NCBI GenBank assembly: GCA_012960975.1 | Contig: DUAE01000059.1 | Span: 69,760 to 133,759, forward strand | From: Candidatus Poseidoniales archaeon | GTDB lineage: Archaea; Thermoplasmatota; Poseidoniia; Poseidoniales; Thalassarchaeaceae | Length of the DNA stretch: 64,000 bases | Reading direction: 5' to 3' | Shown here: piece after piece, positions 151 through 60,468 of the stretch | Position numbering within the stretch: position 1 is the stretch's first letter | Layout of the letters: each line of letters begins with the position of its first letter | Made by a program: the position numbers and the translations under genes | Notes under the pieces: generated by a model | Told to the model about the DNA's origin: nothing | The model's database searches: none | The model's input: the letters and a program-made list of their open reading frames with translations, nothing else

Positions 151-232
151 ATCTGTATTCCGAACCAATTTTCAGCCTATGCCGGCACAGCATTGATTAG
201 GCCCACTATACTGTTGCGGGTCGGAGTGATTG

Positions 233-2927: not shown

Positions 2928-2954
2928 CCGTTATTTTTAATTTCATAGCAGGGG

Positions 2955-2964
2955 TTTAAAAATA
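2955..2964 (+). promoter_or_regulatory. Archaeal TATA-box-like element (TTTAAAAATA) upstream of the first DUF2061 gene
   Basis: TTTAAAAATA lies about 24-33 nt upstream of the ATG at 2988. That spacing implies a leaderless or near-leaderless transcript. Confidence 0.4.
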
Positions 2965-2987
2965 GGGTTCTCGGTACAAATTTTGAT

Positions 2988-7336: not shown

Positions 7337-7346
7337 ACCATTCACC

Positions 7347-8774: not shown

Positions 8775-8829
8775 TTATCAAATTCTCCTTAATTTTGATT
8801 TAACTATCTTTTCCCATTAGTCAAATAGA

Positions 8830-9981: not shown

Positions 9982-9990
9982 ATACTCACC

Positions 9991-10500: not shown

Positions 10501-10501
10501 T

Positions 10502-10735
10502 TTATTCACCCTTCCTTATGTAGAAAACAAATTTGTCTCCTTCTTCGCAATTCTCGACTAATTCATGCCCAACACGAGATGTCCACGCAGGCATATCGCT
10601 ACATGCACCGGGATCAGTTGCGATGACTCGCAAAACTTCACCATCTTTCATCGTATCAATTTTCATTTTCGTTTTGAGGATTGGCATCGGGCAATTCATC
10701 CCACTACAATCTAATTCTTCGTTATAATCTGTCAT
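10502..10735 (-). CDS. tusA: TusA-family sulfurtransferase
   Basis: It is 77 aa and carries the diagnostic CPMP motif in LDCSGMNCPMPILKTK. Its ATG overlaps the ArsR stop (ATGA). Confidence 0.85.
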   Translation of the reverse strand: MTDYNEELDCSGMNCPMPILKTKMKIDTMKDGEVLRVIATDPGACSDMPAWTSRVGHELVENCEEGDKFVFYIRKGE

Positions 10736-38080: not shown

Positions 38081-38082
38081 TC

Positions 38083-39093
38083 TTAAGACCCCTGAGTTTT
38101 GTGTATTGCCTCGGCTATCCGAGCAGGACTTGGCATGTAATCCCATTCCATTGTATGAGGGAAAGGAGTATCCCAACCGGTCACACGCTCGATTGGGCAT
38201 TCTAGGTGGTAAAAGCATCTTTCTTGAATCGACGCAACCATTTCTGCTCCAAACCCACTGGTTTTGGGAGCTTCATGAACGATTACACAACGACCTGTTT
38301 TCTTTATTGATTCAGTTACTGTTTCTCGATCCCATGGGACAAGGGTTTGCAAGTCGATTAATTCACAATTTACGCCTGAATCTCGAATCGCTTGTTCTGC
38401 AACGTGAACCATCGCTCCCCAAGCAATAACAGTACAAGCATCGCCTCTCATTGCTATTCTCGCTTGCTCTAATGGAATTTTGTAATATGATTCTGGAACT
38501 TCTGCTTCCGGGTGATCCTTCCACGTCGGGACATTGTGTGGGTCACCGTAGAAAGGACCTCTGTAGCAGCGTTTTGGTTCGAAGAAAACAACGGGGTCGT
38601 TTGATTCGATCGCGCTAATTAACAATCCTTTCGCATTGTATGGAGTTGAGCAATAAACTACTTTTAATCCTGGAGTATGAGTAAATTGGGCCTCCGGGGA
38701 TTGGGAATGGTGGTGACCCCCTTTGATTCCACCACCGGCGGGCGTGCGAATGGTGACAGGGCAAGTAAATTCACCACCCGATCGGTGGCGAATCTTCGCT
38801 ATTTCATTGACAATTTGATCATATGCTGGGAAAATATAGTCAGCGAATTGAATTTCAAAAACGGGGCGAAGTCCGTTGATGCCCATCCCGAAAGCCATTG
38901 CTGCGATGCCGCCTTCGGCGAGCGGCGCATCGAAGACTCGATGTTTACCGTGTTTTTCTTGTAAGCCATCACAAGTACGGAAAACACCGCCGAAATAACC
39001 GATGTCTTGGCCGAAAACAATCATGTCATTATCTCGCTCGAGCATGATGTCCAAAGCAGAATTGATTGACAGAACCATGTTCATGTTAACCAT
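38083..39093 (-). CDS. 2-oxoacid dehydrogenase E1 component, beta subunit
   Basis: The transketolase-like Pyr and C-terminal domains are present (VFGQDIGYFGGVFRTCDGL, FDAPLAEGGI). Its ATG overlaps the E1-alpha stop (ATGA at 39093). Confidence 0.9.
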   Translation of the reverse strand: MVNMNMVLSINSALDIMLERDNDMIVFGQDIGYFGGVFRTCDGLQEKHGKHRVFDAPLAEGGIAAMAFGMGINGLRPVFEIQFADYIFPAYDQIVNEIAKIRHRSGGEFTCPVTIRTPAGGGIKGGHHHSQSPEAQFTHTPGLKVVYCSTPYNAKGLLISAIESNDPVVFFEPKRCYRGPFYGDPHNVPTWKDHPEAEVPESYYKIPLEQARIAMRGDACTVIAWGAMVHVAEQAIRDSGVNCELIDLQTLVPWDRETVTESIKKTGRCVIVHEAPKTSGFGAEMVASIQERCFYHLECPIERVTGWDTPFPHTMEWDYMPSPARIAEAIHKTQGS

Positions 39094-42741: not shown

Positions 42742-42826
42742 TGGTGCAGGGGGTGGGATTCGAACCCACGAAGGCCTTGCCACCGGAGCTTAAGTCCGGC
42801 CCCTTTGACCACTCGGGTACCCCTGC
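42742..42826 (-). tRNA. tRNA-Leu (anticodon UAA), class II with long variable arm, CCA encoded
   Basis: The reverse complement folds as a cloverleaf. The acceptor stem is GCAGGGG/CCCCTGC and the D arm is CCC-GAGTGGTCAAA-GGG. The anticodon stem CCGGA/TCCGG carries the loop CTTAAGC. The variable arm is TGGCAAGGCCTTC and the T arm is GTGGG-TTCGAAT-CCCAC. The 3' end is ACCA. Confidence 0.9.
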
Positions 42827-42944: not shown

Positions 42945-45884
42945 ATGAAAGTGCGCAGCATGCAAGATTCGAGTGGTAATTCTGCTCAAATTGCCGTGCT
43001 TTTGGCTTTCTTGATGCTATTGCCAATATTTCTGAGTACAGTGGAAACATCAGAGTTGAATGATGAGATTTCTTACCATGCTGGTGAAAGTCCAAGTTTG
43101 AAACTCTACACACTTTATTTCGCTGCGGGTGATTCAACATCTGATGGTGAAGGCGTTCTTACGACGAAAGTTCCTGAATCAGGTGGGCAAGAGACTGCCA
43201 GTGCATTGGATGAGGATGTTGAATTCAGAACGAAAGATCTTCTTTCCACTTTGGATATTTATGGTCGACCACAGCACGGTTCAAGTTCTGGAGATTACTT
43301 CCTCCCGCTCAATCTATTTTTGAAGGCCGTAGGGCCCAGCAATTCAGAAGTTGAGTGGACGATAAACATCGAAGCAGCTGGAAGCCAAATAGGTTCGACA
43401 TCTTGGAGTACAGCAGCTTGTAATGCCGGTATCATGAATTCCTGCAATTTTGACCACGAATCATTTGATGTCGATTTGGGCGCCATCGAATTTTTTACAA
43501 TACCTGAAGAGGCGATATTCGAGATATCGATTTCAGCCGAAATGACCGGCTGCGATGGCGGTTCGTTCCCCGGAGGCTCTAGTTGCTCAGCAGAAGTTGC
43601 ATGGAATGAAATCGATGATGAAACCAATCGTTATTCACAGATAGAAGTAGAGGCAAATGCTCTCTCAAATAGCTTGGTATTATTGCAACGTGAAGGAGCA
43701 GAATTAGCAGAAGGCGGTGAATTGGAATGGTTTCCGAATGATATACTGGAACAACGCTCGATGCAATTCACTTTCGATGTGAAGAGCTCTTTCGGCCGAT
43801 ATGATATCGATACTATCAGATTAATTTTGAGAGACCCGCAAGGTATTTATCGAATCGATCACATAATCACTAATGATGATCCAGATATTGAAGATACTAC
43901 TGAAGGAATTTTCGGCAATTATCTTTGGACATACCCAAGTGGTTTACCGGCTGGAGAATATACTGTTGAGTTAGAGATAACTGATATTCAAGGTAACCAC
44001 GTACTTATCGACCATGACCCTGTCGAAATGCATCAGTTTGGCGTTTCTATCAACCACCGATTAAATCGCCAAACCGAATATATCGCTCCTAACGAAATCA
44101 CGCCAATTCCACTACAATTAGTTCACCGCGGCGATTCTACGAAATCAATGACCGTCGAACTCGAAGTGATGACAAATTTGGGTGGCTCGTGGTTAGTTGA
44201 ATTCGATTCCGAGTCAAATAAGTACGAACTCGATGCAGGAGGAGATATTCTTAATCCGATTCTGACCCTTCAAGCACCAGACGATCTCACAGGGACTCCT
44301 GAGAGTATCGAAATCAGGGCCGTTGCTGAAGCCGAGGTCAATGGCATCATCACCGTCGTTCATCAGGATACTTTGTTGATTGATATTGAGAAAATTGATG
44401 TATTTCAACCTCCTGATATTTCTGTTTGGTCAGAGGATCATGACATACCAATTGCCAACTCTAGTCATCCCGATTCAGTAGATTACACGATTCCTCGGTA
44501 TGTTGAGTACAATCAATTTAACCCATTTTTACTTGAAATTTTTAATACTGGTTTTGATTCAGATACATTCAGAATAGATATTTTACAGCGCTCGAAGGCA
44601 ATTATTCAGGTTTATGATAACGATACGGGTGAGCGGATACTCGAAAATGAAGGCGATGGAACATTCCACTCTGCTATGCTCGACCGGCACTCTACACAAA
44701 TTTTGATGCTGAATATTAAACCATCTTCCGACAGAGAAGATCCTGATACTGGATTGATTGAAATTGAGATAGTATCTACTGGTAATGCATCTCTACGGAC
44801 AACAGTGATATTTACAATTCAGCGTACCTTTGGTATTCGAGCAGAGGTGGCACACGATTGTGATGGTTCTCCGCTCGGACATATTTCAGTATCACTTTGT
44901 TCGCCGGGCCCTGGCAATGCCGAGGTTAGCATGAGAGTGAGAATCATCAACAGCATGACTACTGGCGATTCCTCAATTTACTGGCGACTTCCAAATCCGG
45001 CTACTCTCGATGAGAACACTGACCGTGATTCAGCTTATGGGCAATGGCAGTTTGACATTGCAGATGAAAATGGCGAAAGTGTGCCAAGGGTTTCGCTAGG
45101 CCCAGGAGATTTCATTGAAGTCTTTGTTACCGTTACTCTTACTAGTCAAGTTGAGCAAGGGAATCATACTGTATATCTCCGAATTATTGAAGATACAGAG
45201 AGCGAGGATGCACGATACTTCGATCTTCCAATGGAATTTGAAATCGATGCCGATGAACCTAATATCCAAATCGTTCAGGTTTCACCTGATAGAAAATTAA
45301 AACCAGGTGAAGATTATTCAATTCAAATGAAGGTTAAAAACCTCGGTAATTCACAGATGACATTACTTCTCGATGCAGATGTTGAAGCTAGTGGCTGGGA
45401 GGTCGAAGTCGATGGTCCGTCTGGTTCAAACTTAATTGTCCTCGATGCTTTTGATGAATTGACATTCAATCTCAAGGTAAGGGTGCCTGCAGGTGCAAAT
45501 AATGGCGACGTAGTCCAAGTTTATGTCACTGCAACTCCACTTGACACTACTCAGAGTTGGTCTGATGATTATACTGCAAAAATAACGGTTGACATGACGG
45601 TTGGACTAAGTTCTATTATTTCGATTATTATCAACGAAGTGACTCACCCTAGGCCATTGACTCTAGTCAGTTCTATCGTGGGTATATTGCTTATTTTTGC
45701 TGGGATCCAGAGTGGATTAAACCGCCGAAGATGGGCATCTCATATGGCTCTCATCGAGGCTCTAAACAATGATGATGAAGATGATGAAAATACGGCTGAA
45801 GAGGACAATATACCAGTTCCAGTTACATCAGAAATCGATGACGGCGTTGACCGTTACGAGGATGACGAAATCGAACTCGTTTAA
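42945..45884 (+). CDS. Large secreted/anchored surface protein (COG1470/NEW3-CARDB-like beta-sandwich domains), C-terminal TM and acidic tail
   Basis: The N-terminal signal or anchor is AQIAVLLAFLMLLPIFLS. Several segments look like beta-sandwich domains (for example VKNLGNSQMTLLLDADVEASGWEVEVDG). The C-terminal TM helix LTLVSSIVGILLIFAGIQSGL is followed by NRRRW and a D/E-rich tail. ATG at 42945 is used; the track start at 42939 is TTG. Confidence 0.7.
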   Translation: MKVRSMQDSSGNSAQIAVLLAFLMLLPIFLSTVETSELNDEISYHAGESPSLKLYTLYFAAGDSTSDGEGVLTTKVPESGGQETASALDEDVEFRTKDLLSTLDIYGRPQHGSSSGDYFLPLNLFLKAVGPSNSEVEWTINIEAAGSQIGSTSWSTAACNAGIMNSCNFDHESFDVDLGAIEFFTIPEEAIFEISISAEMTGCDGGSFPGGSSCSAEVAWNEIDDETNRYSQIEVEANALSNSLVLLQREGAELAEGGELEWFPNDILEQRSMQFTFDVKSSFGRYDIDTIRLILRDPQGIYRIDHIITNDDPDIEDTTEGIFGNYLWTYPSGLPAGEYTVELEITDIQGNHVLIDHDPVEMHQFGVSINHRLNRQTEYIAPNEITPIPLQLVHRGDSTKSMTVELEVMTNLGGSWLVEFDSESNKYELDAGGDILNPILTLQAPDDLTGTPESIEIRAVAEAEVNGIITVVHQDTLLIDIEKIDVFQPPDISVWSEDHDIPIANSSHPDSVDYTIPRYVEYNQFNPFLLEIFNTGFDSDTFRIDILQRSKAIIQVYDNDTGERILENEGDGTFHSAMLDRHSTQILMLNIKPSSDREDPDTGLIEIEIVSTGNASLRTTVIFTIQRTFGIRAEVAHDCDGSPLGHISVSLCSPGPGNAEVSMRVRIINSMTTGDSSIYWRLPNPATLDENTDRDSAYGQWQFDIADENGESVPRVSLGPGDFIEVFVTVTLTSQVEQGNHTVYLRIIEDTESEDARYFDLPMEFEIDADEPNIQIVQVSPDRKLKPGEDYSIQMKVKNLGNSQMTLLLDADVEASGWEVEVDGPSGSNLIVLDAFDELTFNLKVRVPAGANNGDVVQVYVTATPLDTTQSWSDDYTAKITVDMTVGLSSIISIIINEVTHPRPLTLVSSIVGILLIFAGIQSGLNRRRWASHMALIEALNNDDEDDENTAEEDNIPVPVTSEIDDGVDRYEDDEIELV

Positions 45885-46003: not shown

Positions 46004-49000
46004 ATGATACGAAAGCGTCGTTCAGCAGTCGTCTTTACGATGATAATGCTGATTTCATCCTACTCTGCAATCGAATTCGGGAGTTGGGAAGCATTGGCTT
46101 CAACTGATGATGATGGTGACGGATTGACATATGGTCTGGAATTCTATATCAACACTCAACCTCAAGATTGGGATAGCGATAATGACGGGCTTCCTGATGG
46201 TTGGGAATGGCAATATGGATTAAATCCTCTCTCGTCGAGTGGAGACAACGGATCCGTTGGTGATCCTGATGGGGATGCCTTCACAAATCTGAATGAATAT
46301 CTGTATGCGATACCGGCGGGTTGGGATAATCCTCTAACGCCGAACGTACTTGATAATGGAGTTTGGTGGAATGGTACGGTTCCTGTCCGAGAATGGGATG
46401 AAGAGAGCGCTATGCAATTATTGCAAGGTTCAGGAACTGATGGTTATGATGAAGATCCCGTTGGGAATATTTGTTTTAACGGATTTGATGATGATAAAGA
46501 CGGGCTCGTCGATAATTTCGATCCTGATGGGGATGGAGACGCTGATTGTTCCAGTGATGATGATGATGGTGACGGTCTCATAGATGAGGATCCTGATGGC
46601 TGGGATACCGATGGCGACGGAATGCCGGATGGTTGGGAGGTTGCAAACAATCTCGACCCAACCTCCGCTTCAAATTTAGACGGCGGTAACGGAGATCCTG
46701 ATGGCGACGGATTAGTTAATTTGAAAGAATACGTAAATCCTGCTTGGGGAACAAGAAATGGAACAACTACACCACCTACTCAATATTTCCGCCCTGGTCC
46801 ATATGCAATGACTGCTACAGAATCTCCTTGTAACCCAGTTCTATTGCTAGGTCCTGGTGGATGCTTAATTTTCACCGCTGAAGTCGATGGAATTACTCAA
46901 ACCGATCCACATAACAACGATACTGATGGAGACGGTTTGAACGATTCATATGAAGCTCTTATACTTCTCACCGACCCTACTGCTGTCGACACTGACGGTG
47001 ACGGAATTCACGACGGTGTCGAAGTAAACGGTTCATACGGCGACCCCCCTCAAGCTACTGACCCAAGAAACAACAATACCGATGGTGATCAATTCGATGA
47101 CGGAGAAGAGGATGTTAATGGAAATGGGGTGGTCGATGGAAATGAAACCGACCCTACGAGAATTGAAGATATCGGTGACATTGATGATGATGGGATTGAA
47201 AATTGGGAAGAAAACATGACTTGTACCAAGTGGAACGTTACCGATACCGATGGTGGTGGAGTCAGTGATGGTGACGAACTTTCCCTTTCACATCAAACAA
47301 ATCCGTGCTTATCCGAAATTGAGATAGTCAAAACGATAATGTCTTGGGATTCAGCTCAGCAAATGCTTGAGTTGAATGATTCCTTTGACCTCGATCCTAC
47401 TCCTATGGATTGGCGGCAACAAGGGTCGATGATGGCATATTATGTCTTGGCGAATGCATCGAGGGTAGGATTTAGGTATGAATCTGTTATTAATCAATTT
47501 TTGAGAAATGTCGATACTGATATGCCAATTGGTGCAGTCTCAGTAGTCTTTACGAATAATTCTTGGTGCTGGAACGCCACTGCTGGTGCGATTAACTCAC
47601 CTCATTGCGATGATGATTATCTTGATACAGATGGCGATGGCTTAGCAGATTGGGAAGAGTTCCTCGGTACATGGGGTTCTTTCTCCTTGGCTAATCTATC
47701 TGATTCCGATGGTGATGGCGTTGATGATTTAACCGAAATTCAAAATCAAACCGATCCTATGGAGCCTTGTCATAATCTGCTCGATAGCGATGGTGATGGC
47801 TTGAATAATTACTTTGAGAATACGACCGGATGTGACTTAGCTTTCGGTGTCGGTGGCGGAAATGGGACTGTTGACACATATTTCACGCTCTGGAATGAAA
47901 CCGATACCGACAATGGTGGTGTTGCCGATGGTCAAGAATATTTTGATGGTACAAATCCTCAAAATAATTCAGAGGATGACTTAAATCCTCTAGATACTGA
48001 TGGAGATGGAATACCTGATACAATTGAGCAAGCAATCGGTACTGATTGGTTGAATCCAGATACTGACGGCGGCGGAGTTCCAGATGGAATTGAATGCCCA
48101 GAAGAATTTTGGGATGTAAATTGCTTGAATTCGCCAACCAATCCCTGGGATGCGGTTGATGACTTTGATGACAACATGCTCTATTTCCTCGCTACGAATA
48201 CAACCTCCGGCATCGATACAAATATCAAGCAATATTGGAGATGGCACACTTATGATACCTATACTGGAGTCTCCTTTGGAGTCAATTCAAGCCTAGTTGG
48301 CAATACGATTGTTGTTCCATCTTTCTCTTCAACACAGGGGGTGGCTGCTGCCACTTATTGGGATGATTCTGAACTCAAGGCTTGGACAATAGAGTATCAA
48401 ATCGGTGCTGAAATCCAACCCGGCGATGAATTAATTCTACCATATAACGCTGTAAATTGGACTAGTTGGATTGATCAAAATGCAGGACTAAATTTTTCTA
48501 ATTACACTCGTGATGTAATCGTAGACCAATCCTCTATTGACACAATCTTCATCACCGCGCCTCAGGTTTCCTTTATGGCTGAAATTCAAGAAAACACTAC
48601 GGAATTTTTAGGCAGTAATTATGCAATGGATTTACCAGCTCCTTATTTAAATCGACAGAGCGAAGTGCCAGCTTCGATAACTCAGACTGTGCTGAATGAT
48701 TCGGGTGCATTTTCGGCGTGGGAAAAGGTGGTTGCGATTCAAAACTTCCTGATTAATGGGAATACTACTACTACGTTCATTCGAAATTACGATGGTATCC
48801 AACCAAATTTAGGCCATGATTATGAGGGTGACCTAACTTATTTTATTCTTAATAATACACAAGAAGGATCATGTGACCAATTTGCAACTGTATTCGCAGT
48901 AATGTTAAGGCACGCCGGATTATCTTCACGAAAAGTAACTGGTTTTTCGGGAGGGACATGGAATGGCAAATCTTTCGAAGTATATGGTAATGATTTCACA

Positions 49001-52000
49001 ACTTGGGTTGAAGTTCACATGCAGACCAATGCCAATCAAGGTAATGAGACGATAGGATGGGTTCCATTTGAGGCCTGTCCCCCACAAGCACTCGTTGAGG
49101 TCGTAAATGAAGAATGGGGCCCTACAAATTTCGATCGCGATTTGAATGGAAGCGAAATTTGGTTGAATGGCACTCTTCAATTTGTAGAGAATGGGACTTT
49201 TGCTGAGAATGTTACAATCGATCTTTACCTTGTCAAGGGTAATGAAACTGCTCTTGTCCCTGGTCCTGCTGCAACTTCAAATCACTTAATTGCGAGCGGC
49301 ATGACTGACCTGAATGGTTCATTCAATCTTAATGGCACTCCACTTGAGCCTGTAAATCCTGGATATGGGGCACTCGTTTTACATGTTTATCAGAAAGCAT
49401 ACGTTGGCGTACAAGGAATTTCATTCGTTTGGCGAATGAATGTTACTGACGATTCAGTTTTGTCAATTAGTTCACCACCACCTATTACAGAACCGATGTT
49501 GGGTGTTGGTGTCAATACCACCTTTACAGGAGAGATGAATTGGGAAAATTCACCATTTTCAGACCCTTCTGTCGTTGATAATATGCAGGTTCTCTTGAAT
49601 TATACAACCTCTGTAGATGGTCCACAAAATTTGATTGCTGATATAGGACCTTCTGGTTATTATGAATTTTCAGTTCCTATCGATGATGCTGAACCTCTTG
49701 GTTTGATCAACGCATCATTGGCTTTCCTTGGCTGGCATGAAGATGATTTGAACAATGCTTCAACACCTGAATACCATGTTCGACCATCTACTTTCTCCTT
49801 CATGTTCAATATTACTCCCTCGCCGAATCTATCGGTTGTTCTCGAAGCTCAAGGGATAAACAATACATTCCTCGATATCAACTCACCAGTCTACATCAAC
49901 GGCTCAGCTATGAGTCGGGGTATCTCTCCTGAATCACTTAATGGAACTCTATATTTCCAAATGCGTCGCGCGAATACTAATGGTCCATATGTGACACTTG
50001 CGACATGGTATCTGAACGATTCTAACTGGACAACAACTCCTGGTGATTTTGAATTGTCATGGGCTTTCTTGGGTAGTGATGTGCCAATTCCTGCTGGGTT
50101 TGTAGAAGTAAAATTCCAATTCGATGCAGAGGGATTGTTCGCTAATGATGAGGTAACATACCTTACTGAACATGGTATTCGTAGTAATGTGAATTTCAAT
50201 TATACTCTCGGTTTACAATCGCGTGGCAATATGGCTAATGTGGAAGTAATTCTAACCGATCACACGGATACCTCTGTGGCTAATTTCCTTGGGACATATC
50301 TCTTGGATTTCGATGGTGAGAATGTTTGGAATGAAACTGACCCTTCCGTCCCCCGAATATCTACAGAATGGATGATTCCAACCGATATTGAAGCTGGTGA
50401 CTATTCTTGGATTCTGAATTATTCGGGTTCGACTTGGTTCAACTCGGCAAGTATTGTTGATCTTGTAAGAATTCAAGGCAGAGCCAATGCAACCGTAAAT
50501 CTTGGTTCGGATTGGACTCCCCGTGGTACAACAAATTGGGTCTCTGGGCATGCTAATGATCTGGCTCTGAATACGGTAATTACGGGTAATAACTCCTCAG
50601 TTACAGTTCAATTAGAAGTCCCTTCAGATTTACCTCCATTGCCTGACGGTAGTCCTGCTCCACCCGTAATTCATAGGCTTGGCGCAACTTGGATTAACAA
50701 TGCCACAGGTGAATACAATCTGACATTCTCGATGCCTGAAGGCGTCGGTTCAAGTGTTTACGTTCTACGAGTTGTCCTAGATTTTACTGTAAATGCACCT
50801 GTCGGTGGTCATTATTACTCGGTTTCCGATGCAGATAGAGTCAATGCTGGAATACAAACAGAATATATCGTTGAATCTGCACCGACTTCATTGATTGTAG
50901 TAGCTGGGCAAGTAATGATAATCAATGCAACAATTACCGATGTTGAATCTGAATCTCCGATACCCGATGCATCTGCTAATCTATATTTTGACTTCGGCGG
51001 TCCATTACAACAATTGTTAGAATCAGATCTTTCTGGTGTTGATGGTGTCGTTCGATTTAATCCAACAATCCCTGCTGATACTCCTCCAGGATACTACACG
51101 GTTCGCGTACACGCACCAGACGATATTACTGACAATCTAACAGTTCCAAATGCCGGTAGATGGTTAGGGAATGAAAGTTCGTCAAATTTGACCGTTCAAG
51201 TTGCGAGCTATATCGACCTCGATCCACTCGCACCTGAGGTGTCCGCCGGTTCAACATTCATCGTTAGCGGTCAAGTGATGGATGCAATTGATGCAAATCG
51301 AACCGTCGACGGCCCGATGGCCGTCGAAGTTTTCTTCTTAGACGACCCCAGTGAGACATTAATTTCCATTCATACGACTTCGAATAATGGTTCGTTCAAT
51401 ATTACTGTTCCTACGGATCCATTTGGTGATGGGGTTACGAGCGGTATCAAAACCGTCGTTGTGAGTGTCCTCAACGGTAGTACACCATTCTACCTAACCG
51501 GTACAGGTAACGATACTATTCTCGTACGAGGTGTGACTGCGTTCCGCGACAAAACACCATTCCTCAACATGGTTGTAGATAGAGGCGATACAATTGTTTT
51601 CAGTGCTAAATTGGTTGAATCGAGTGATAGCGATCGAAACTTAGCGGGCATGAATATTTCGGCAATTTTCCACGATACATGGATGAGTGAATCGGTTACG
51701 AACGGCGAAGGAGATGTCAATTTTTCATTCAATATACTTCACGATCATCCATTGGGATTAGTAAGTGTAATTCTTTACTATAATGGCTCGAATACACTTC
51801 ATAATACACTAACTCTGATTTCAACGATAACAATTAGATCTCAGACATTCATTACAGTTAATCCGATTCTAGATAATCCGGCAGCGGGCGATTCGTTCAA
51901 TGTAAGCGGTACTCTGACCTCTAGTAATGGCAGCGCCATTATTGATAGGGCAGGAAATACTCTAGCCCCAAGTTTGACATTTATGATTAACGGGGAAAGT

Positions 52001-54916
52001 AATACATTCCAAGTTATTTCAAGTTCAATTGATTTGAATGGTTCTTGGCTAGCGAATATTCGCCTAGATCTCACCTTCCCTCGTGGTTCTCACAATATTG
52101 AAGCGACCTTCACTCCTACTGTCAATTACTATGGTTTGAGTGCCGGTAATGGAACATTCGATAGCCGCGGTTATTCACTCATTACAATCATCAATCCACT
52201 TGATTTAGATCCTGATGAGCGTACTGTCCGCGGTGATAATCTCAGCATGAACTTCTCACTGATAGACAATGCAGGCGGTGTTGTACCCGCCGCACAAATC
52301 GATATTTATGTTGATGAATTATTCACGACGAGTGTATTCTCTGATTCACTCGGACTAGCCAATACAACTATTCTCATCGATGAAAATCGTGAGGCTGGCT
52401 CAATGGAAATTCGTGCTGTTTTCGCTGGTTTCAATGGCACGACCGGATTGGTCGGTGATGAAGCTATTACAAGAGTTGTTATTCTGGCACCTTCGGTTCT
52501 AGAAATAACAGCATTTAGTGGTTCTGCAATCGCTGGAGAATCCATCACTTTCCATGGAACATTACTCGACGAACATGGAAATGCTTTGTTGGAAAATGGT
52601 CAAATACATGGCGGAATCATTCACCTTTCTATTGACGGAGTGGATGTTGGACCGATTTATTCGACTCAGAGCAACTCTACAACTGGAGAATGGTCGATTA
52701 CTTACAGTTTGCCACTAGATTCGGATTATGGAGTTCACCAGGTCAGAGTTGACTTCCTAGGTGGTTTCACTTGGGTTGACCCTATGGGTCAAGGAGATTC
52801 ATTAAATCCAGAATTCTATCTTCCTTCTACGTTTAATATGGAATTCAACGTAACACAAACCTCACAAGTCGTTCTGACGACACCACCGGGTGAAGTTGAC
52901 CGAAACCAATTATTGCTCATAGAGGGAATGTTAACTGATGGTTCAGGTCGAGTATTGCCAAATCGTTATGTCAATGTCTACATGAATGATCAATTACTGA
53001 CCGGCCTTAACATTGATGTAAATGGCTCTTTCAGTCTATACATTCCAGTCCCACCAGATATGGAATTGGGTCCAAGGATTGTCAAGATTGAGTTTGAAGG
53101 TGAGGAATTTATTCTCGCTTCAAACTCATCATCGATTTTCATTGTTTTCTCCCCAGCCGTCGTCTCCATATTTTCACCAGAACCATCGGCGGTCGGTGAT
53201 AATCTGAGGTTGAGTGGAACCATACGTGATAATATGCCGAATGGTCTGCTTGCCAATCATTCCCTCGAGATTTTTATCGATGGAACTTTGATCGGAATTA
53301 CCACCAGCGATGAAAATGGCTATTGGGTTCTAAATTGGGTCGTATCAGAATTTATTGATGTAGGTGTTCACACGGTGACGATTAAAGCCCCACAACAAGG
53401 ATATTATCGCGAAGGCCTAACAGAAACCAATCTAACGATTGCTTATCATTCTGGAATTACTCTCCAAGTCGATTCATCGGTAGTTACCCGTGGCGGTGTT
53501 TGGAATTTTTCGGGGCGACTCTTCGATGATGATTCATCCGGTCGCCCAGGTCTTGAAAGTCGGGAGTTTTCCGTTATTTTGGATGGAGAAAAAATTGAAA
53601 CGATTACAACTAGCATCGATGGCACATTCTCATTCAATCATGAATTAGGATATTCGATTGCACGAGGAGGACACGACATTTCAGTCGTTTTCAACGGTGA
53701 GACCTTCTATCTCCCTATTTCTTACAATATGACAGTATTTGTCAAAGCCGATATTACATTGGAGGTTTTATGGGTTGCAGATACGATAATTCGCAGTGAT
53801 GTCGAGCATCCAATTAAGATCGAAGGAAGGATTCTCGAAGTTGGTGGTGATGGCAATATCCTTGAGGATTTGGTTGTCACTCTACACTGGTCCTCGACTA
53901 GTGCTGAACCTGCAACAATTACTTGGGATAAAGCGACTGGACATTTCCGAATCATTTCACCTGCACGTTCTCCAATGACTCCTGGTGAAATTGACATGTG
54001 GGTTGAGGTAGAAGCAGATTCTTCTAGATATCTGAACTTCGGGGAAATCGATTTCTCAGTTGGAATCATGGTTCCGGTCAATTTCCTATTCACTCCCGAT
54101 TCACAATATGTAGGTAAGGACACTAGAATCATTCGTGGAACGGTCAACATAACTGCTACAGACACATTAATGCCGGTCGCGAATATCTCAATTTCAGCAT
54201 TATTAATCAATTCAACATCTGGATTGAGTCTTTTGCCTAAGGTTACATTGTTGACTGATGAGGATGGAATAGTTGCCTATGAATTCAAGGCTGTCGAACC
54301 ACTACCACCTCTCTGGGATCAAACATTCTGGGGTCCATTGAAGATTATGTTTAGCACTGATTCGATGTTCGTAGATCCATCGAATCGGACATGGCTCTCT
54401 ACCCAACATGGAGGGTTAGAAATTGAATATGAGCCGGCTGAACAAGCATCTTTGATTAAACCAATATTATTCGGGCTACTCGTCGTATTCATCCTAGTTG
54501 GATTAATTGGCGGTGGGATGATGTATCGCCGTCGTCAACAAGCAACCCTCGATGATTTGGCCAGTGTATTCAGCTATACTGCTGAGTTACTCGCCGCTGG
54601 TGATGCTTTCCGCGAAGCTATTTTCAATTGCTATGAAAGCCTTTGTCAAATTTTGATGCGCCGCGGATTCCTTCGACGTGATTTTGAGACCGTTCGTGAA
54701 TTCGAGATGGCGATTCGTGCCGCATTACCGATTAGCGAACAATCGCTAATCGCACTCGACAGAATATTCGAAGAAGCGCGGTATTCAAGCCATATCTTGG
54801 GTGAAGGTCATCGTCAGAATGCCCAAATTTCACTCAATGCGGTTCTGCAAGAAATCGATCAATTGCAAGAAATTCCAGTACGAGATGACATCATTCAAAT
54901 TGATCCTGAACAGTGA
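46004..54916 (+). CDS. Giant (about 2970 aa) surface protein: signal anchor, TSP3-like Ca-binding repeats, transglutaminase-like core, Ig-like repeat array, C-terminal TM and cytoplasmic DUF4129-like tail
   Basis: It is a single uninterrupted ORF of about 8.9 kb. The ATG at 46004 gives MIRKRRSAVVFTMIMLISSYSAIEF (a positive N-region followed by a hydrophobic segment). The track start at 45959 is GTG. Domain evidence is listed in the sub-features below. Confidence 0.85.
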   Translation: MIRKRRSAVVFTMIMLISSYSAIEFGSWEALASTDDDGDGLTYGLEFYINTQPQDWDSDNDGLPDGWEWQYGLNPLSSSGDNGSVGDPDGDAFTNLNEYLYAIPAGWDNPLTPNVLDNGVWWNGTVPVREWDEESAMQLLQGSGTDGYDEDPVGNICFNGFDDDKDGLVDNFDPDGDGDADCSSDDDDGDGLIDEDPDGWDTDGDGMPDGWEVANNLDPTSASNLDGGNGDPDGDGLVNLKEYVNPAWGTRNGTTTPPTQYFRPGPYAMTATESPCNPVLLLGPGGCLIFTAEVDGITQTDPHNNDTDGDGLNDSYEALILLTDPTAVDTDGDGIHDGVEVNGSYGDPPQATDPRNNNTDGDQFDDGEEDVNGNGVVDGNETDPTRIEDIGDIDDDGIENWEENMTCTKWNVTDTDGGGVSDGDELSLSHQTNPCLSEIEIVKTIMSWDSAQQMLELNDSFDLDPTPMDWRQQGSMMAYYVLANASRVGFRYESVINQFLRNVDTDMPIGAVSVVFTNNSWCWNATAGAINSPHCDDDYLDTDGDGLADWEEFLGTWGSFSLANLSDSDGDGVDDLTEIQNQTDPMEPCHNLLDSDGDGLNNYFENTTGCDLAFGVGGGNGTVDTYFTLWNETDTDNGGVADGQEYFDGTNPQNNSEDDLNPLDTDGDGIPDTIEQAIGTDWLNPDTDGGGVPDGIECPEEFWDVNCLNSPTNPWDAVDDFDDNMLYFLATNTTSGIDTNIKQYWRWHTYDTYTGVSFGVNSSLVGNTIVVPSFSSTQGVAAATYWDDSELKAWTIEYQIGAEIQPGDELILPYNAVNWTSWIDQNAGLNFSNYTRDVIVDQSSIDTIFITAPQVSFMAEIQENTTEFLGSNYAMDLPAPYLNRQSEVPASITQTVLNDSGAFSAWEKVVAIQNFLINGNTTTTFIRNYDGIQPNLGHDYEGDLTYFILNNTQEGSCDQFATVFAVMLRHAGLSSRKVTGFSGGTWNGKSFEVYGNDFTTWVEVHMQTNANQGNETIGWVPFEACPPQALVEVVNEEWGPTNFDRDLNGSEIWLNGTLQFVENGTFAENVTIDLYLVKGNETALVPGPAATSNHLIASGMTDLNGSFNLNGTPLEPVNPGYGALVLHVYQKAYVGVQGISFVWRMNVTDDSVLSISSPPPITEPMLGVGVNTTFTGEMNWENSPFSDPSVVDNMQVLLNYTTSVDGPQNLIADIGPSGYYEFSVPIDDAEPLGLINASLAFLGWHEDDLNNASTPEYHVRPSTFSFMFNITPSPNLSVVLEAQGINNTFLDINSPVYINGSAMSRGISPESLNGTLYFQMRRANTNGPYVTLATWYLNDSNWTTTPGDFELSWAFLGSDVPIPAGFVEVKFQFDAEGLFANDEVTYLTEHGIRSNVNFNYTLGLQSRGNMANVEVILTDHTDTSVANFLGTYLLDFDGENVWNETDPSVPRISTEWMIPTDIEAGDYSWILNYSGSTWFNSASIVDLVRIQGRANATVNLGSDWTPRGTTNWVSGHANDLALNTVITGNNSSVTVQLEVPSDLPPLPDGSPAPPVIHRLGATWINNATGEYNLTFSMPEGVGSSVYVLRVVLDFTVNAPVGGHYYSVSDADRVNAGIQTEYIVESAPTSLIVVAGQVMIINATITDVESESPIPDASANLYFDFGGPLQQLLESDLSGVDGVVRFNPTIPADTPPGYYTVRVHAPDDITDNLTVPNAGRWLGNESSSNLTVQVASYIDLDPLAPEVSAGSTFIVSGQVMDAIDANRTVDGPMAVEVFFLDDPSETLISIHTTSNNGSFNITVPTDPFGDGVTSGIKTVVVSVLNGSTPFYLTGTGNDTILVRGVTAFRDKTPFLNMVVDRGDTIVFSAKLVESSDSDRNLAGMNISAIFHDTWMSESVTNGEGDVNFSFNILHDHPLGLVSVILYYNGSNTLHNTLTLISTITIRSQTFITVNPILDNPAAGDSFNVSGTLTSSNGSAIIDRAGNTLAPSLTFMINGESNTFQVISSSIDLNGSWLANIRLDLTFPRGSHNIEATFTPTVNYYGLSAGNGTFDSRGYSLITIINPLDLDPDERTVRGDNLSMNFSLIDNAGGVVPAAQIDIYVDELFTTSVFSDSLGLANTTILIDENREAGSMEIRAVFAGFNGTTGLVGDEAITRVVILAPSVLEITAFSGSAIAGESITFHGTLLDEHGNALLENGQIHGGIIHLSIDGVDVGPIYSTQSNSTTGEWSITYSLPLDSDYGVHQVRVDFLGGFTWVDPMGQGDSLNPEFYLPSTFNMEFNVTQTSQVVLTTPPGEVDRNQLLLIEGMLTDGSGRVLPNRYVNVYMNDQLLTGLNIDVNGSFSLYIPVPPDMELGPRIVKIEFEGEEFILASNSSSIFIVFSPAVVSIFSPEPSAVGDNLRLSGTIRDNMPNGLLANHSLEIFIDGTLIGITTSDENGYWVLNWVVSEFIDVGVHTVTIKAPQQGYYREGLTETNLTIAYHSGITLQVDSSVVTRGGVWNFSGRLFDDDSSGRPGLESREFSVILDGEKIETITTSIDGTFSFNHELGYSIARGGHDISVVFNGETFYLPISYNMTVFVKADITLEVLWVADTIIRSDVEHPIKIEGRILEVGGDGNILEDLVVTLHWSSTSAEPATITWDKATGHFRIISPARSPMTPGEIDMWVEVEADSSRYLNFGEIDFSVGIMVPVNFLFTPDSQYVGKDTRIIRGTVNITATDTLMPVANISISALLINSTSGLSLLPKVTLLTDEDGIVAYEFKAVEPLPPLWDQTFWGPLKIMFSTDSMFVDPSNRTWLSTQHGGLEIEYEPAEQASLIKPILFGLLVVFILVGLIGGGMMYRRRQQATLDDLASVFSYTAELLAAGDAFREAIFNCYESLCQILMRRGFLRRDFETVREFEMAIRAALPISEQSLIALDRIFEEARYSSHILGEGHRQNAQISLNAVLQEIDQLQEIPVRDDIIQIDPEQ
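46100..48110 (+). repeat. Array of about 20 thrombospondin-type-3-like / dockerin-like Ca-binding loops (D-x-D-x-D-G-x-x-D-x-x-E), protein-level repeat
   Basis: By eye I see DSDNDGLPDGWE, DTDGDGMPDGWE, DPDGDGLVNLKE, DTDGDGLNDSYE, DTDGDGIHDGVE, DTDGGGVSDGDE, DTDGDGLADWEE, DSDGDGVDDLTE, DSDGDGLNNYFE, DTDGDGIPDTIE and DTDGGGVPDGIE, among others. Confidence 0.75.
48830..49090 (+). other. Transglutaminase-like (papain-fold) core domain within the giant protein
   Basis: The segment reads QEGSCDQFATVFAVMLRHAGLSSRKVTGF...NDFTTWVEVHM...GWVPFEACP. This matches the G-x-C-x-x-F-A...R-x-V-x-G-[FY]...H-x-W-x-E-V...W-x-x-x-D-P-T layout, except at the His and Asp positions. Confidence 0.65.
49190..54330 (+). 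repeat. At least 10 tandem Ig-like / carboxypeptidase-regulatory-like beta-sandwich modules (about 90-110 aa each, divergent), sequon-rich
   Basis: The recurring pattern is [VI]x[VI]xxDGxxxxxxxTxxxGx[FW]xxxxx[VI]Pxxxxx-Gx[HY]x[VI]xxx[FY]xG. Examples are VNVYMNDQLLTGLNIDVNGSFSLYIPVPPDMELGPRIVKIEFEG, LEIFIDGTLIGITTSDENGYWVLNWVV...GVHTVTIKAP and FSVILDGEKIETITTSIDGTFSFNHEL...GGHDISVVFNG. Confidence 0.6.
54459..54913 (+). other. C-terminal TM helix followed by a cytoplasmic DUF4129-like domain of the giant protein
   Basis: The TM helix is PILFGLLVVFILVGLIGGGMMY, followed by RRRQQ. The tail FREAIFNCYESLCQILMRRGFLRRDFETVREFEMAIRAAL...LDRIFEEARYSSH is the pattern of DUF4129, the domain that accompanies bacterial transglutaminase-like membrane proteins. 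Confidence 0.6.
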
Positions 54917-54966: not shown

Positions 54967-55431
54967 TCAATCCATCAAGAATGAGAGTATTCCGTCTTCC
55001 CATGAAATCGTTGAGATTTCTTTGTCAATTGGCATTCTAAATGACCGCAATAATCCACCAAATCGTTCTGGAACCAAAACGCGTACAATTTGTTGATTTT
55101 CATCAATCATGGTTTTGACGACAATTTCGGATGGGTTAGCCGATGGTAGTTCCAACCTAATTCCGATTTCGTCTTGGTTGCCATTGAACTCACGAAGCAT
55201 TTCATCTAGTGGCATAATTTCACGAATCTGTAATTTTGCAGATTCGATTGGAGTCAACACATCTGAAATCACATTTTGATGATTTACAATTATCTCCGAA
55301 TGCGGTAGGTTTGTAAGAAATTGGTCGTGAATTTCGGCTGCGGAAACATCGAAACCGAGACTTGATTTTACTAAAGAGGGGATGTTCAATTCCTGCGAAG
55401 GAAGTGCGATATCTTGTGTTATCCAATCCAT
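54967..55431 (-). CDS. Hypothetical protein, possibly a divergent Hsp20/alpha-crystallin-domain (ACD) protein
   Basis: The C-terminal half reads IGIRLELPSANPSEIVVKTMIDENQQIVRVLVPERFGGLLRSFRMPIDKEISTISWEDGILSFL. It follows the ACD strand pattern (...LPG...I.V......L.I...R....G.F.R.F.LP..VD...I.A...NGVL.I.) only loosely. Confidence 0.4.
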   Translation of the reverse strand: MDWITQDIALPSQELNIPSLVKSSLGFDVSAAEIHDQFLTNLPHSEIIVNHQNVISDVLTPIESAKLQIREIMPLDEMLREFNGNQDEIGIRLELPSANPSEIVVKTMIDENQQIVRVLVPERFGGLLRSFRMPIDKEISTISWEDGILSFLMD

Positions 55432-57555: not shown

Positions 57556-60468
57556 TCAACGAAGCACGATAGCTTCCGAATCTCGACTGTCTAAAATAAC
57601 CTTCAATGGCTTTTCGATTTGTATATGTCGAAGTGGTCCGAATTTAGTTTCAGGTTCGAAAGAATCTAGCCAATCCCAATCAACTAAATCATCATGCCCA
57701 ATCGTTAGATAACCAATATTGAAACTGACAATATTTTGGAAAAAATGAGTTCCTTGACTCGGCTCGACATGAATATCCGACATCGGCACCTCAACAATTG
57801 CTTTAGCTCCCATTATCTGATTCCACTCAACTGGGATTCCTAATGATGGATCTGATGAACCCCATCGGCCAGGTCCGATAAGCAGATAGGGACGTTTCTG
57901 TTTACGTAAAATTGCATCGATAGCTTCAATTTCATCAACTAAATTCGTTGTTCTCATCCTATCGAGTTTACTTGGATTGACGTATACAACATCGCGAATA
58001 TCATCGATTACCCCATTACCCAATGATTTGCTGCTGATTACTACTGCTGAATTTCGGTCGACTTCAGAAAGGTCGATATCGATGTCGACAGAATCATCCA
58101 TCATCGTTCTCACCTGTAAAAGAGCGAATTTTCGTTTATTGGATTTTTCATCAATATTTACAGCAAATTCGATTTCAACCGGCGAGCCTAAATAACTCTC
58201 ACAGGTTGAAAGAACATGGTGAAGAATCTCTGAGAGGGGGAATCTACCATGTTTGAGAATAGGTGCAAAAGTTACGAGGCGAGGGCCCCCAGTTACCATT
58301 ATCGAGTCGACAATTCTGTCATCCGAGACCACGTAAGTTGATCCGACTAAGGATAGAACACCGTCGAGTTCTGCTATTTCAAGGCCATATTGTTCAAGGT
58401 TTTTCTCTTCATTCGAATAAACTTCACCATCTTCTTCGATCATTGGTATCGCGTAGAAATTCCTTTGTGAACTCTCCAAAATAGCTTCAGTGCTATGAAA
58501 TTGATGAATACGCTTCGGCTGACCGGGGCTATATCGCAGACATTTACCCCCCATCGCGACTTGCCTGCCGAGGCCGATACAAATCGCAGCCATTCCATCT
58601 TCGGATTCTAGTGGTGCTACTGGGTAGTGATTGTGGCTGCGAGCGGCACCCGAAATATGTGGATAAAATCTACCATTGACTTCATTTCCAACCAATTCTT
58701 GAACGACCACTGCCATCTGTTCGTCTTCTATTGAATTTGGTGTGGCGCTGACATAGGCTTTTGCACCGCGGTGATAGGTCGAAGCGTAAACTAATTTTAT
58801 CGCTTCAAGCAATCGCCGTAATCTTACTGAAAGATCTGGGTGGTCATTAGCCAACATATGGGTCGCATATACTCCGGCGAATGGTTGGTGACTCGCATCT
58901 TCGAGAAGGGAAGATGATCTGACAGCAAGCGGCCAGGATGTGTACTCCAGCATAACTGACAAATCTTCGATTAAATCCTCAGAAAATGAACTCGCTTTGA
59001 ATGCAGCATCAACATCATCATCGCTTTCATTTTCATGAATGAATTTGTCCAAATTATTTTTCATAATGAATTCATTGAATACTTCAGTTCCAATCACTAC
59101 CGATTTTGGAACGATGAAATCGACATCAGGAAAAGCAGAATCTAAACCTATATCTGGCATTTTTGTGAAGAAAAATGCTAAACCTCGTCCTTTTCCTCCT
59201 AAACTACCCTTGCCGATTCGGAGGAAATCAGAGTTGTTCCCGGTTTTTTCGTGATCCTGAATCGTCCGTGTGTGAACCAAATTCAAGTGTAATTCGACTA
59301 GATCGGCAATATGTTGTCGAGCCTCTTCTAGTGTGTCAAAATCATCTAGTGTCAAGGGTCGCATTTGAGCGGCTAAGGTAAATTCTGTTCTCGTCCTTAA
59401 CCAGTGAGAAAAATGGTTTCGGTTAGCATGATATGTGACTGATTCGATTGGTGCTTCACGTAGACATTCGATAAATTCGGCCAACGTCGAAGCGCGAGCA
59501 ACTTCTTCGCCTTCGATTGAGCGAAATATAAAATCGCCAAATCCCATTTTTTCGACCATAAATTCTGCAATTCTTTTGTACAGTGCTGTATCTTCTTTGT
59601 GGAGAAACCGAACGCCGAGCGATTCAGCATCTTCTTTTAATTCAAGATTTTTTGATTGAAATAAAATTGGAGTATTGCTGTGCCTAGATTGAATGAATTT
59701 GACTAATTCTAGGCCAGCAGAGTCTCGGTTACCACCTAGATTTGGGAATTTCCCATCAGTGAAAACACCAATGATATTGTTGTGATAACGATCTATAATT
59801 GAGCGAGCGGATTGCATATCCGTTGCGAGTAGAATTTTCGCACGAGCCCGAAGCCGCAGGAGTTTTTCGTCAAGGTTCCCTCCTTCGCCCATTAGGCGAG
59901 TGGTTTGTTTTACGAGTTGAGTGTAGAGTAGTGGCAAATATGCCGAATAGAAACGCCGACTATCTTCCACCAACAATATCACTTGCACATCAGCATCGCT
60001 CACATCATATGCAACATTTTTTTCATCTTCTATCAGTTTGCAAATAGACAATAGTATTCTGCTATCTCCAGTCCAAACAAAGATCCGGTCGATTCCGTCA
60101 CCAGCATGAAGTGTGGCCAATTCACGGGTGTTATGACTTAGTAATATTACCGGCAGGTCGGTGATAATTGACTTTACTTCACGGCCAAAGGCATTGACAT
60201 CCATCGAACCAACTCGGGCCATGGTAATGACGAGGTCGAATTGCCTTTCGCGAATAAGTTGGAGTGCATCTCTGGCTTCCCGGCTGTGTATGATTCGCGG
60301 AGATTGTGAAAGGTTCAATTCGGCATATTCTTGCCTCATAATCTCCGCGAGGTAGCCCGATTCTTCGAGTAGATAATAATCGAAAGGACTGGCGACGAGA
60401 AGCACATCTCGAATTCGAAAAGGTGTCAGTCTTTCGAAGCGAGACCAATCGGACATGTCTTTCACCAT
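57556..60468 (-). CDS. Receiver-like domain(s) + PEP/pyruvate-binding (PPDK N-terminal ATP-grasp) domain protein, function unknown
   Basis: The N-terminal CheY-like segment is IRDVLLVASPFDYYLLEESGYLAEIM...FDLVITMARVGSMDV, and a second is VILLVEDSRRFYSAYLP. The central ATP-grasp motif is GKGSLGGKGRGLAFF...AVRSSSLLEDAS...FAGVY. The conserved C-terminus is PYLLIGPGRWGSSDPSLGIPV. I see no phosphohistidine swivel (TGGxTSH) and no PEP-utilising TIM barrel. Confidence 0.7.
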   Translation of the reverse strand: MVKDMSDWSRFERLTPFRIRDVLLVASPFDYYLLEESGYLAEIMRQEYAELNLSQSPRIIHSREARDALQLIRERQFDLVITMARVGSMDVNAFGREVKSIITDLPVILLSHNTRELATLHAGDGIDRIFVWTGDSRILLSICKLIEDEKNVAYDVSDADVQVILLVEDSRRFYSAYLPLLYTQLVKQTTRLMGEGGNLDEKLLRLRARAKILLATDMQSARSIIDRYHNNIIGVFTDGKFPNLGGNRDSAGLELVKFIQSRHSNTPILFQSKNLELKEDAESLGVRFLHKEDTALYKRIAEFMVEKMGFGDFIFRSIEGEEVARASTLAEFIECLREAPIESVTYHANRNHFSHWLRTRTEFTLAAQMRPLTLDDFDTLEEARQHIADLVELHLNLVHTRTIQDHEKTGNNSDFLRIGKGSLGGKGRGLAFFFTKMPDIGLDSAFPDVDFIVPKSVVIGTEVFNEFIMKNNLDKFIHENESDDDVDAAFKASSFSEDLIEDLSVMLEYTSWPLAVRSSSLLEDASHQPFAGVYATHMLANDHPDLSVRLRRLLEAIKLVYASTYHRGAKAYVSATPNSIEDEQMAVVVQELVGNEVNGRFYPHISGAARSHNHYPVAPLESEDGMAAICIGLGRQVAMGGKCLRYSPGQPKRIHQFHSTEAILESSQRNFYAIPMIEEDGEVYSNEEKNLEQYGLEIAELDGVLSLVGSTYVVSDDRIVDSIMVTGGPRLVTFAPILKHGRFPLSEILHHVLSTCESYLGSPVEIEFAVNIDEKSNKRKFALLQVRTMMDDSVDIDIDLSEVDRNSAVVISSKSLGNGVIDDIRDVVYVNPSKLDRMRTTNLVDEIEAIDAILRKQKRPYLLIGPGRWGSSDPSLGIPVEWNQIMGAKAIVEVPMSDIHVEPSQGTHFFQNIVSFNIGYLTIGHDDLVDWDWLDSFEPETKFGPLRHIQIEKPLKVILDSRDSEAIVLR

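Follow-up and report, generated by a model that had tools for sequence, protein, structure and literature searches.

A giant Ca-loop-rich envelope protein of Poseidoniales archaea with a TgpA-like head that lacks the catalytic histidine

A single gene in the DNA analysed here, a 64,000-nucleotide stretch (the window) of contig DUAE01000059.1 from a Candidatus Poseidoniales archaeon, encodes a giant protein that we take, on balance, to be a type-I envelope glycoprotein of TgpA descent, probably working as a non-catalytic structural scaffold of fixed length. The gene occupies 46004..54916 on the + strand and comprises 2970 codons plus a stop, its product beginning MIRKRR. The same open reading frame (ORF) is open from a GTG at 45959 or an ATG at 46004 through 54916, and we favour the ATG because the nearest database ortholog, 94% identical, likewise has 2970 amino acids (aa); the single ORF of about 2970 codons reported in an initial annotation of this DNA is thus confirmed. 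Sequence features support well the prediction of a type-I, N-glycosylated, TSP3-rich, Ca-loop envelope protein. All four domain assignments of that annotation survive profile searches above Pfam gathering cut-offs.

Listed from outside to inside, the protein would consist of TSP3 Ca-loops stapled by Cys pairs, a TgpA-like head, about 16 Ig-like modules, a transmembrane (TM) helix and a DUF4129 domain. Its N terminus (putative signal peptide, aa 1–33, 46004..46102, +) had been called signal-anchor-like. It looks more like a cleavable Sec signal: read from the translation, MIRKRR and a hydrophobic stretch precede WEALA/ST (slash, presumed cleavage point), and the family consensus retains this motif as WEA-x-A/ST (WEAxAST). 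The predicted Ca-binding TSP3-repeat region follows (aa 34–700, 46103..48103, +), with about 21 D/N-x-D/N-x-D/N-G loops. TSP3_bac matches six stretches of the protein above the Pfam gathering cut-off (E = 2.8e-10), and Ca-loop motifs number 15 in the strict form (D-x-D-x-D-G) and 23 in the relaxed form ([DN]x[DN]x[DN]G), 21/23 of the latter within aa 35–690, so that the earlier count of about 20 loops was a fair one. Six Cys pairs are conserved in the region, aa 441–535 form a variable insert, and a sequence search with the region found no PDB match. Against NCBIfam, the repeat region alone gives partial matches to CglD (101.9 bits) and MtsD (64.5 bits), families with equivalog cut-offs of 400 and 800 bits, respectively; no full-length match above these cut-offs was found.

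The composition of the protein is consistent with a heavily modified cell surface component. N-x-S/T sequons number 89, against 33±5 in shuffled sequence, none lies beyond aa 2800, and 53/89 are position-conserved in at least half of the orthologs. Each ortholog carries 72–105 sequons, and the density in the query is ~30 per 1000 aa compared with 2.6 in other window proteins. The giant protein is very acidic (D+E 426 vs. K+R 113), and Lys makes up 0.4–1.4% vs. 4.1% in other window proteins, a five-fold depletion. The 14 ectodomain Cys residues fall into seven sequence-adjacent pairs that are kept in 112–119 of 119 orthologs. Sequons, topology and motifs thus support the earlier description of an extracellular, Ca-loop-rich surface protein with a cytoplasmic DUF4129 tail. 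Conservation varies strongly along the chain, with mean identities to the query of 0.75 and 0.71 in the TSP3 repeat blocks, 0.39 in the insert at aa 441–535, 0.47 in the TgpA-like head, 0.48 in the Ig array, 0.23 in the TM segment and 0.71 in the cytoplasmic tail. Conservation is highest in the TSP3 region and the tail, and the former, which lies distal to the membrane, ranks first among the extracellular parts.

The head (aa 701–1050, 48104..49153, +) is predicted to adopt the fold of a whole TgpA ectodomain, with a beta-sandwich subdomain and a transglutaminase-fold core. Transglut_core (PF01841) matches aa 940–1024 (E = 2.4e-10, 41.1 bits vs. a cut-off of 23). An AlphaFold2 (AF2) model of aa 700–1055 (pLDDT 88.9, pTM 0.86) has as its top Foldseek match in the PDB, by far, 6g49, the periplasmic domain of Pseudomonas aeruginosa TgpA (E = 2.1e-12; 311 aligned columns, TM-scores 0.50/0.60), followed at lower rank by the putative cysteine protease 3isr and then animal transglutaminases. 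The sole significant PDB sequence match of the head is also 6g49. Both the fold and the Pfam match of the transglutaminase/papain-fold core proposed earlier therefore hold; what fails is the active site, where the catalytic His is missing in 119/119 orthologs.

Sequence alignment with 6g49 places T999 opposite the TgpA catalytic His and E1023 at the Asp position. Among the 119 orthologs the His column reads T65/S18/A17/D8/N5/G4/Q1/E1 and the Asp column E62/D35/Q11/N7/K2/H1/Y1, and no invariant His exists anywhere in aa 700–1055 across them. Since His is absent throughout, the canonical Cys-His-Asp mechanism is impossible for this head, which is most likely a pseudoenzyme without catalysis. C957 and C1025, the head domain's sole Cys residues, are each kept in 119/119 orthologs, and D943, R976, W1001, E1003 and W1019, near C957, are invariant or nearly so. 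C1025 stands two residues after the acid position, replacing the usual Thr. An exhaustive HMMER search with the head domain gave 10082 matches at E < 1e-3, and the best 150 were aligned back to the profile. Most listed outgroup transglutaminase (TGase) domains (~220) read C..H..[D/E]..T at the triad columns, with Thr at the C1025 column in most of those where it aligned; among the aligned best 150, the reading C..[not H]..x..C is confined to the marine group II (MGII) clade, including the 30%-identical protein P0252. Because the outgroup domains mostly keep the C..H..[D/E]..T reading, loss of His and replacement of Thr by Cys are shared derived characters of the MGII clade. A C957–C1025 disulfide is the simplest reading of the two residues, as they are the domain's only Cys and all other ectodomain Cys are paired, and they probably do form one.

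Between head and membrane lies an array of about 16 divergent Ig-like modules of the Big_3_5, CarboxypepD_reg and MG-like kinds (aa 1051–2799, 49154..54400, +; Pfam, hhalign). Big_3_5 matches aa 1959–2047 above the Pfam gathering cut-off, and MG2, bMG3, MG4, CarboxypepD_reg and Big_1 have matches in orthologs, MG2, bMG3 and MG4 only faintly. A single-seed hidden Markov model recovered merely three further Ig modules (i-E < 1e-2) and was therefore replaced by an all-against-all hhalign profile comparison, for which aa 1050–2799 were cut into 16 modules of ~110 aa. Here 14/16 modules link to another at a probability of at least 80%, nine of them mutually at 85–99%, which makes the earlier figure of at least 10 Ig-like modules an underestimate. 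The array contains no Cys in aa 1051–2799, and for this reason the idea of an alpha-2-macroglobulin or thioester (CGEQ) protein was rejected.

A single TM helix and a folded tail complete the predicted topology, as first annotated. The segment at aa 2812–2843 (54437..54532, +; Kyte-Doolittle maximum 2.77) is the sole strong hydrophobic segment of the protein, is modelled by AF2 as one long helix and is followed by RRRQQ. Beyond it, aa 2844–2950 (54533..54853, +) are predicted to form a cytoplasmic helical-bundle tail, in which DUF4129 (PF13559) matches aa 2876–2940 (E = 5.6e-6, 26.8 bits vs. a cut-off of 24.8). In the AF2 tail model (pLDDT 80.7) the TM helix continues into a bundle of four more helices. 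The tail has 23 invariant columns among 49 sequences, and its motifs are, by eye, nearly unchanged in an ortholog of just 30% overall identity. A Foldseek search of the tail model against the PDB returned nothing significant (best, the HEPN protein 2hsb at E = 0.025; the rest generic four-helix bundles), no PDB entry matched the tail by sequence, and a word-index search with the tail alone found just C-terminal fragments of the same MGII family.

The giant gene is well supported as a vertically inherited core gene of Poseidoniales. A homolog search returned >120 full-length relatives, from 94% down to 41% identity, and those with names are entered as transglutaminase domain-containing proteins from Thalassarchaeaceae, Poseidoniaceae or marine group II. 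Full-length orthologs, 119 in all, have a length of 2982±12 aa (range 2936–3017), and a 121-sequence alignment is nearly gap-free along the query. In a scan of one genome per GTDB species, 165 genomes encode a relative; the best 80 of these bear Poseidoniales, Thalassarchaeaceae or generic archaeal metagenome-assembled genome labels, with one Chloroflexota-labelled exception. This contig (L056, PBAZ01000027.1, labelled Chloroflexota bacterium isolate SP4360) has a giant gene of the MGII type, with 59% identity in the head domain, and is probably a misbinned MGII contig. Membership of the giant gene in marine group II is supported. The order of upstream partner, giant gene, small ORF and XPD helicase is kept in MGIIa (L001), in MGIIb (L003 and L004) and in a deeper lineage (L086), with a 960–981-aa membrane protein ahead of the giant gene and a convergent 140–166-aa ORF between it and XPD. 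The genes for 2-oxoacid dehydrogenase, lipoyl synthase and an SDR are found further upstream, and in some loci FolB or other genes are inserted. Identity between MGIIb and MGIIa is 41% for the giant protein, 39% for XPD, 31% for the SDR and 32% for the upstream partner, so that for a predicted surface protein the giant diverges slowly, at a rate equal to that of the XPD helicase. At the locus deeper than the MGIIa/MGIIb split (L086:4967-19781), giant, partner and XPD are 30%, 27% and 35% identical, respectively, to those of the window.

The partner itself is a predicted 979-aa type-I membrane protein encoded directly upstream (42945..45884, +), with an N-terminal signal, beta-sandwich domains, a C-terminal TM helix and an acidic tail; its hydrophobic segments lie at aa 10–36 and 902–926. 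Sequence searches against Pfam, NCBIfam and the PDB turned up nothing beyond weak beta-sandwich matches, among them NPCBM_assoc as the one Pfam domain and a weak NCBIfam choice_anch_T. An ortholog stands directly upstream of the giant gene in MGIIa (32% identity), MGIIb (57%) and L086 (27%). Among the 120 relatives listed of 656, all measure 956–1057 aa and are either unnamed or called hypothetical, and those with a name carry MGII labels.

These observations suggest how the scaffold could be built. Its N-glycosylated, acidic, Lys-poor ectodomain, rigidified by Ca2+, would form an envelope element of fixed length, such as a coat, canopy or strut. In the head, the His is gone, the Asp position is free to vary and the former nucleophile C957 is kept together with the clade-specific C1025; with no catalytic His, the head would bind instead of catalysing. 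The giant probably acts with its co-conserved neighbour, the ~980-aa type-I membrane protein whose gene lies immediately upstream, and its conserved cytoplasmic DUF4129 bundle may tie the envelope element to a conserved intracellular partner. More tentatively, giant and partner could together be the main S-layer-like scaffold of Poseidoniales, which would entail conversion of a TgpA/MoxR-type envelope enzyme into a non-catalytic structural protein of fixed length, a disulfide-locked Cys and DUF4129 coupling to an intracellular partner; we hold this fuller version with low confidence.

Because length is fixed, indels are few, gene order is conserved, divergence is slow and the distal TSP3 region is conserved, we favour a structural element over a variable adhesin. 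The annotation had proposed a Ca-dependent adhesin, matrix-binding or S-layer-associated protein, of which the surface location and the Ca-loops stand and the adhesin is the weaker part. A role in Ca-dependent adhesion, with the protein fixing MGII cells to particles, phytoplankton or other cells, is also how thrombospondin genes are generally read in the MGII literature. It would fit the TSP3 repeats, which partially match CglD and MtsD, adhesion proteins of Myxococcus, though with scores well short of the equivalog cut-offs, and the long Ig-like stalk, which is typical of adhesins; Rinke et al. (PMC6461757) count thrombospondin genes among MGII adhesion genes and take their wide presence in Poseidoniales as evidence of cell adhesion. 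Yet length and module number are fixed, with hardly any indels across the order, the gene sits in a conserved order within a housekeeping region and contains no DNA repeats, it diverges no faster than XPD, and the distal TSP3 region, far from being the most variable extracellular part, is the best conserved. We consider an adhesin as the chief role rather unlikely, while noting that adhesive and structural roles are compatible and the two readings overlap. If the protein were instead an enzyme active at the surface, as a transglutaminase, protease or deamidase whose non-canonical site uses C957, this would account for the invariance of that residue and the near-invariance of its surroundings, and the TgpA periplasmic domain shows transglutaminase activity in vitro (PMC3507681). 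This reading seems very improbable given a catalytic column that is never His, a head domain without any invariant His and an acid position that tolerates Q, N and K; moreover, with all other ectodomain Cys paired, C957 has one possible mate, C1025, at a position that is usually Thr in outgroups. Finally, there is next to no chance that the ORF is a chimeric or repeat-collapsed assembly artefact. Nothing was found in favour of an artefact, a concern that stems solely from the many similar modules in the gene. The DNA of the gene contains no tandem repeats and no direct repeats >38 nt (those present are TSP3 motifs of at most 38 nt, 61–74% identical), which makes repeat collapse unlikely, and full-length, co-linear orthologs of the same length come independently from ENA, JGI, NCBI, Logan and Tara assemblies, as well as from single-cell genomes (AG-/AH- isolates) and contigs of up to 340 kb.

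A further alternative concerns the tail and draws on giant proteins outside MGII. Beyond MGII-type giants, the HMMER matches include many proteins of 1400–3900 aa with two to four TGase cores. Two of these, P0248 (2801 aa) and P0251 (3142 aa), have HEAT repeats, four Transglut_core domains, a CarboxypepD_reg/Big_1/Big_3_5/MG-like array and a C-terminal DUF4129; at the Pfam level, then, a TGase core with an Ig array and DUF4129 in 2500–3250 aa exists outside MGII. Four outgroup loci (L085:8001-23146, L087:7001-21012, L088:7001-19906 and L089:7001-22012) contain five-gene cassettes in the order giant TGase-Ig-DUF4129 protein, 730–835-aa protein without a Pfam match, MoxR (AAA_3), DUF58 and ~200-aa protein, for which we found no published description. 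Our guess, from nearby OmpR-type regulators, a Cas5d gene and IS elements, is that the cassettes are bacterial. The MGII partner has no similarity to the 835-aa protein that follows outgroup giants. The outgroup giants P0248, P0251, P0258 and P0271 resemble the MGII giant in size (2500–3250 aa), Transglut_core, Ig-type array (22% identity over 668 aa) and C-terminal DUF4129. They differ in having HEAT repeats and 3–4 TGase cores, of which most retain the C-H-D/E triad, in lacking a TM helix immediately before DUF4129, and in their 4–5 sequons per 1000 aa and few Cys; P0248, P0251 and P0271 have 3–4 N-terminal hydrophobic segments and P0258 none. Outgroup giants always precede MoxR-DUF58, after the 730–835-aa protein, whereas the MGII giant has no such neighbours.

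On this basis the giant protein could serve a MoxR-DUF58 chaperone system, encoded elsewhere in the genome, as its sensor or substrate arm. By analogy with the cassettes of TgpA, PFNA and the HEAT-TGase giants, the DUF58/MoxR pair would engage the tail for envelope remodelling or quality control. Genes for MRP-type MoxR often stand ahead of DUF58 and transglutaminase genes (PMC6803598), tgpA shares a transcript with PA2875-PA2874 (PMC3507681), the four outgroup loci place similar giants beside MoxR and DUF58, and the MGII tail is the most conserved intracellular element. However, a Pfam scan of 41/51 listed ORFs of at least 120 aa, including the giant, found no AAA_3/MoxR or DUF58 in the 64-kb window, as the initial annotation had also reported (the other ten ORFs overlap larger ones, except that at 36788-38218), and none lies within 8–10 kb on either side of the giant orthologs in L001–L004 and L086. 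The architecture of the outgroup giants also differs, in that their DUF4129 does not directly follow a TM helix. We therefore judge a MoxR-DUF58 role improbable.

Several points weigh against the structural scaffold that we prefer. The C957–C1025 disulfide is argued from pairing logic alone, and an invariant Cys could equally signal some retained chemistry. Partnership with the upstream protein is likewise argued from conserved adjacency alone, and the tail has no informative structural neighbour (best Foldseek E = 0.025). The S-layer proteins so far characterised in archaea mostly fall well short of 2970 aa. Lastly, we found no paper that mentions the giant protein.

Other genes of the window are described here for context. 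The convergent gene downstream (54967..55431, −) encodes a 154-aa soluble protein without a Pfam or NCBIfam match. A 140–166-aa gene occupies the same convergent position in L001, L003, L004 and L086, with weak homology (30% identity pairwise, and no match in a scripted BLASTP), and any link to the giant protein is positional only; the C-terminal half of the 154-aa protein looks beta-rich. A tRNA-Leu(TAA) gene (42742-42826, −) separates FolB from the partner gene and is read from the opposite strand. At 57556-60468 (−), a 970-aa protein combines a weak response-regulator receiver, DUF5752 and the PPDK_N part alone of PEP synthase/PPDK, an unusual architecture that is absent from the corresponding position in L001, L003 and L086. 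Near the start of the window (230-1636, +) is a flotillin/SPFH protein, a type that papers on MGII have considered as a candidate factor in adhesion or aggregation. A cluster at 3771-10509 (−) in this MGIIb genome resembles Psr/Phs-type sulfur-compound reductases and comprises a TauE/SafE exporter, a 933-aa molybdopterin oxidoreductase, a 475-aa fused 4Fe-4S/NrfD subunit, a rhodanese and metallo-beta-lactamase protein and a DsrE-like protein.

To our knowledge, no description of the MGII cell envelope exists. No member of marine group II is in culture (Rinke et al., PMC6461757), and the giant protein may be the best candidate handle on the cell surface of this very abundant uncultured group. 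It is the largest protein encoded in the window, and it is present across the order at near-invariant length and predicted to be surface-exposed and glycosylated; these properties make it a prime candidate for an envelope scaffold, and also for a possible virus receptor, a cell-sorting antigen and a metaproteome marker. From an evolutionary standpoint, the family suggests that a TgpA-type membrane transglutaminase can enlarge four-fold and lose its catalytic His and still keep the TM-DUF4129 coupling. Giant TGase-Ig-DUF4129 proteins also appear to be a wider uncharacterised class, elsewhere tied to MoxR-DUF58 cassettes, and the MGII family offers a clean case for studying DUF4129, a domain of no known function that is among its best-conserved parts. 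Literature searches found no paper joining MGII and transglutaminase, none on the pseudo-active site, the partner or the conservation of the giant protein, and only two that mention DUF4129, neither of them relevant; an MGII metatranscriptome paper makes no mention of the protein. The TgpA wiring plan and the public-database label of transglutaminase domain-containing protein were already known. New here, and specific to the clade, are the loss of His, the variable Asp position, the Thr-to-Cys change, a sequon density of about 29 per 1000 aa, Lys depletion, the strong conservation of TSP3 region and tail, the fixed upstream partner and the lack of MoxR/DUF58 nearby.

Among known systems, TgpA (PA2873; PDB 6g49/6g4h) is the best sequence and structural match, spanning the whole two-subdomain ectodomain, and it shares the plan of an extracytoplasmic TGase fold followed by a TM helix and a C-terminal cytoplasmic DUF4129-type domain. 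Because the head folds like the TgpA periplasmic domain and DUF4129 follows the TM helix, the TGase-TM-DUF4129 wiring, initially said to match no characterised protein, is that of P. aeruginosa TgpA. The association of a TGase core with a C-terminal DUF4129 is the one from which DUF4129 was defined (Pfam entry). TgpA has 688 aa and six predicted TM helices, with Pfam DUF3488 as its N-terminal anchor. Its Cys-His-Asp triad is intact, and its transglutaminase activity in vitro is Ca-independent (PMC3507681). The MGII protein, at 2970 aa and with a predicted type-I topology, carries in addition TSP3 loops over ~670 aa and an array of about 16 Ig modules, is without the catalytic His and has no MoxR/DUF58 neighbour; it shows no Pfam match to DUF3488 and only a single signal-like hydrophobic stretch at its N terminus. 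It thus shares with TgpA the Transglut_core, the whole-ectodomain fold and the TM helix with DUF4129, and departs from it in the catalytic triad, the polytopic N-terminal anchor and the MoxR-DUF58 operon.

The Bifidobacterium PFNA cluster (pkb2-fn3-aaa_atp-duf58-tgm) brings together a membrane transglutaminase-like protein and an Ig-like (FN3) surface protein as one functional unit (PMC6803598). There each has its own gene, within an operon that also includes MoxR, DUF58 and a Ser/Thr kinase, and Tgm is polytopic; the MGII giant joins the Ig array and the TGase fold in a single chain, and no ATPase, DUF58 or kinase gene is close by. Myxococcus CglD and MtsD share the D-rich Ca-binding repeat type and nothing else of the architecture. 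S-layer glycoproteins of the Haloferax volcanii type have a signal peptide, an acidic, N-glycosylated Ig-like ectodomain, a dependence on divalent cations and a C-terminal membrane anchor. The MGII giant is three to four times larger and has in addition a TgpA-like head and a folded cytoplasmic domain, but it appears to share with archaeal S-layer glycoproteins a secreted, acidic, sequon-rich beta-sandwich ectodomain and a C-terminal anchor.

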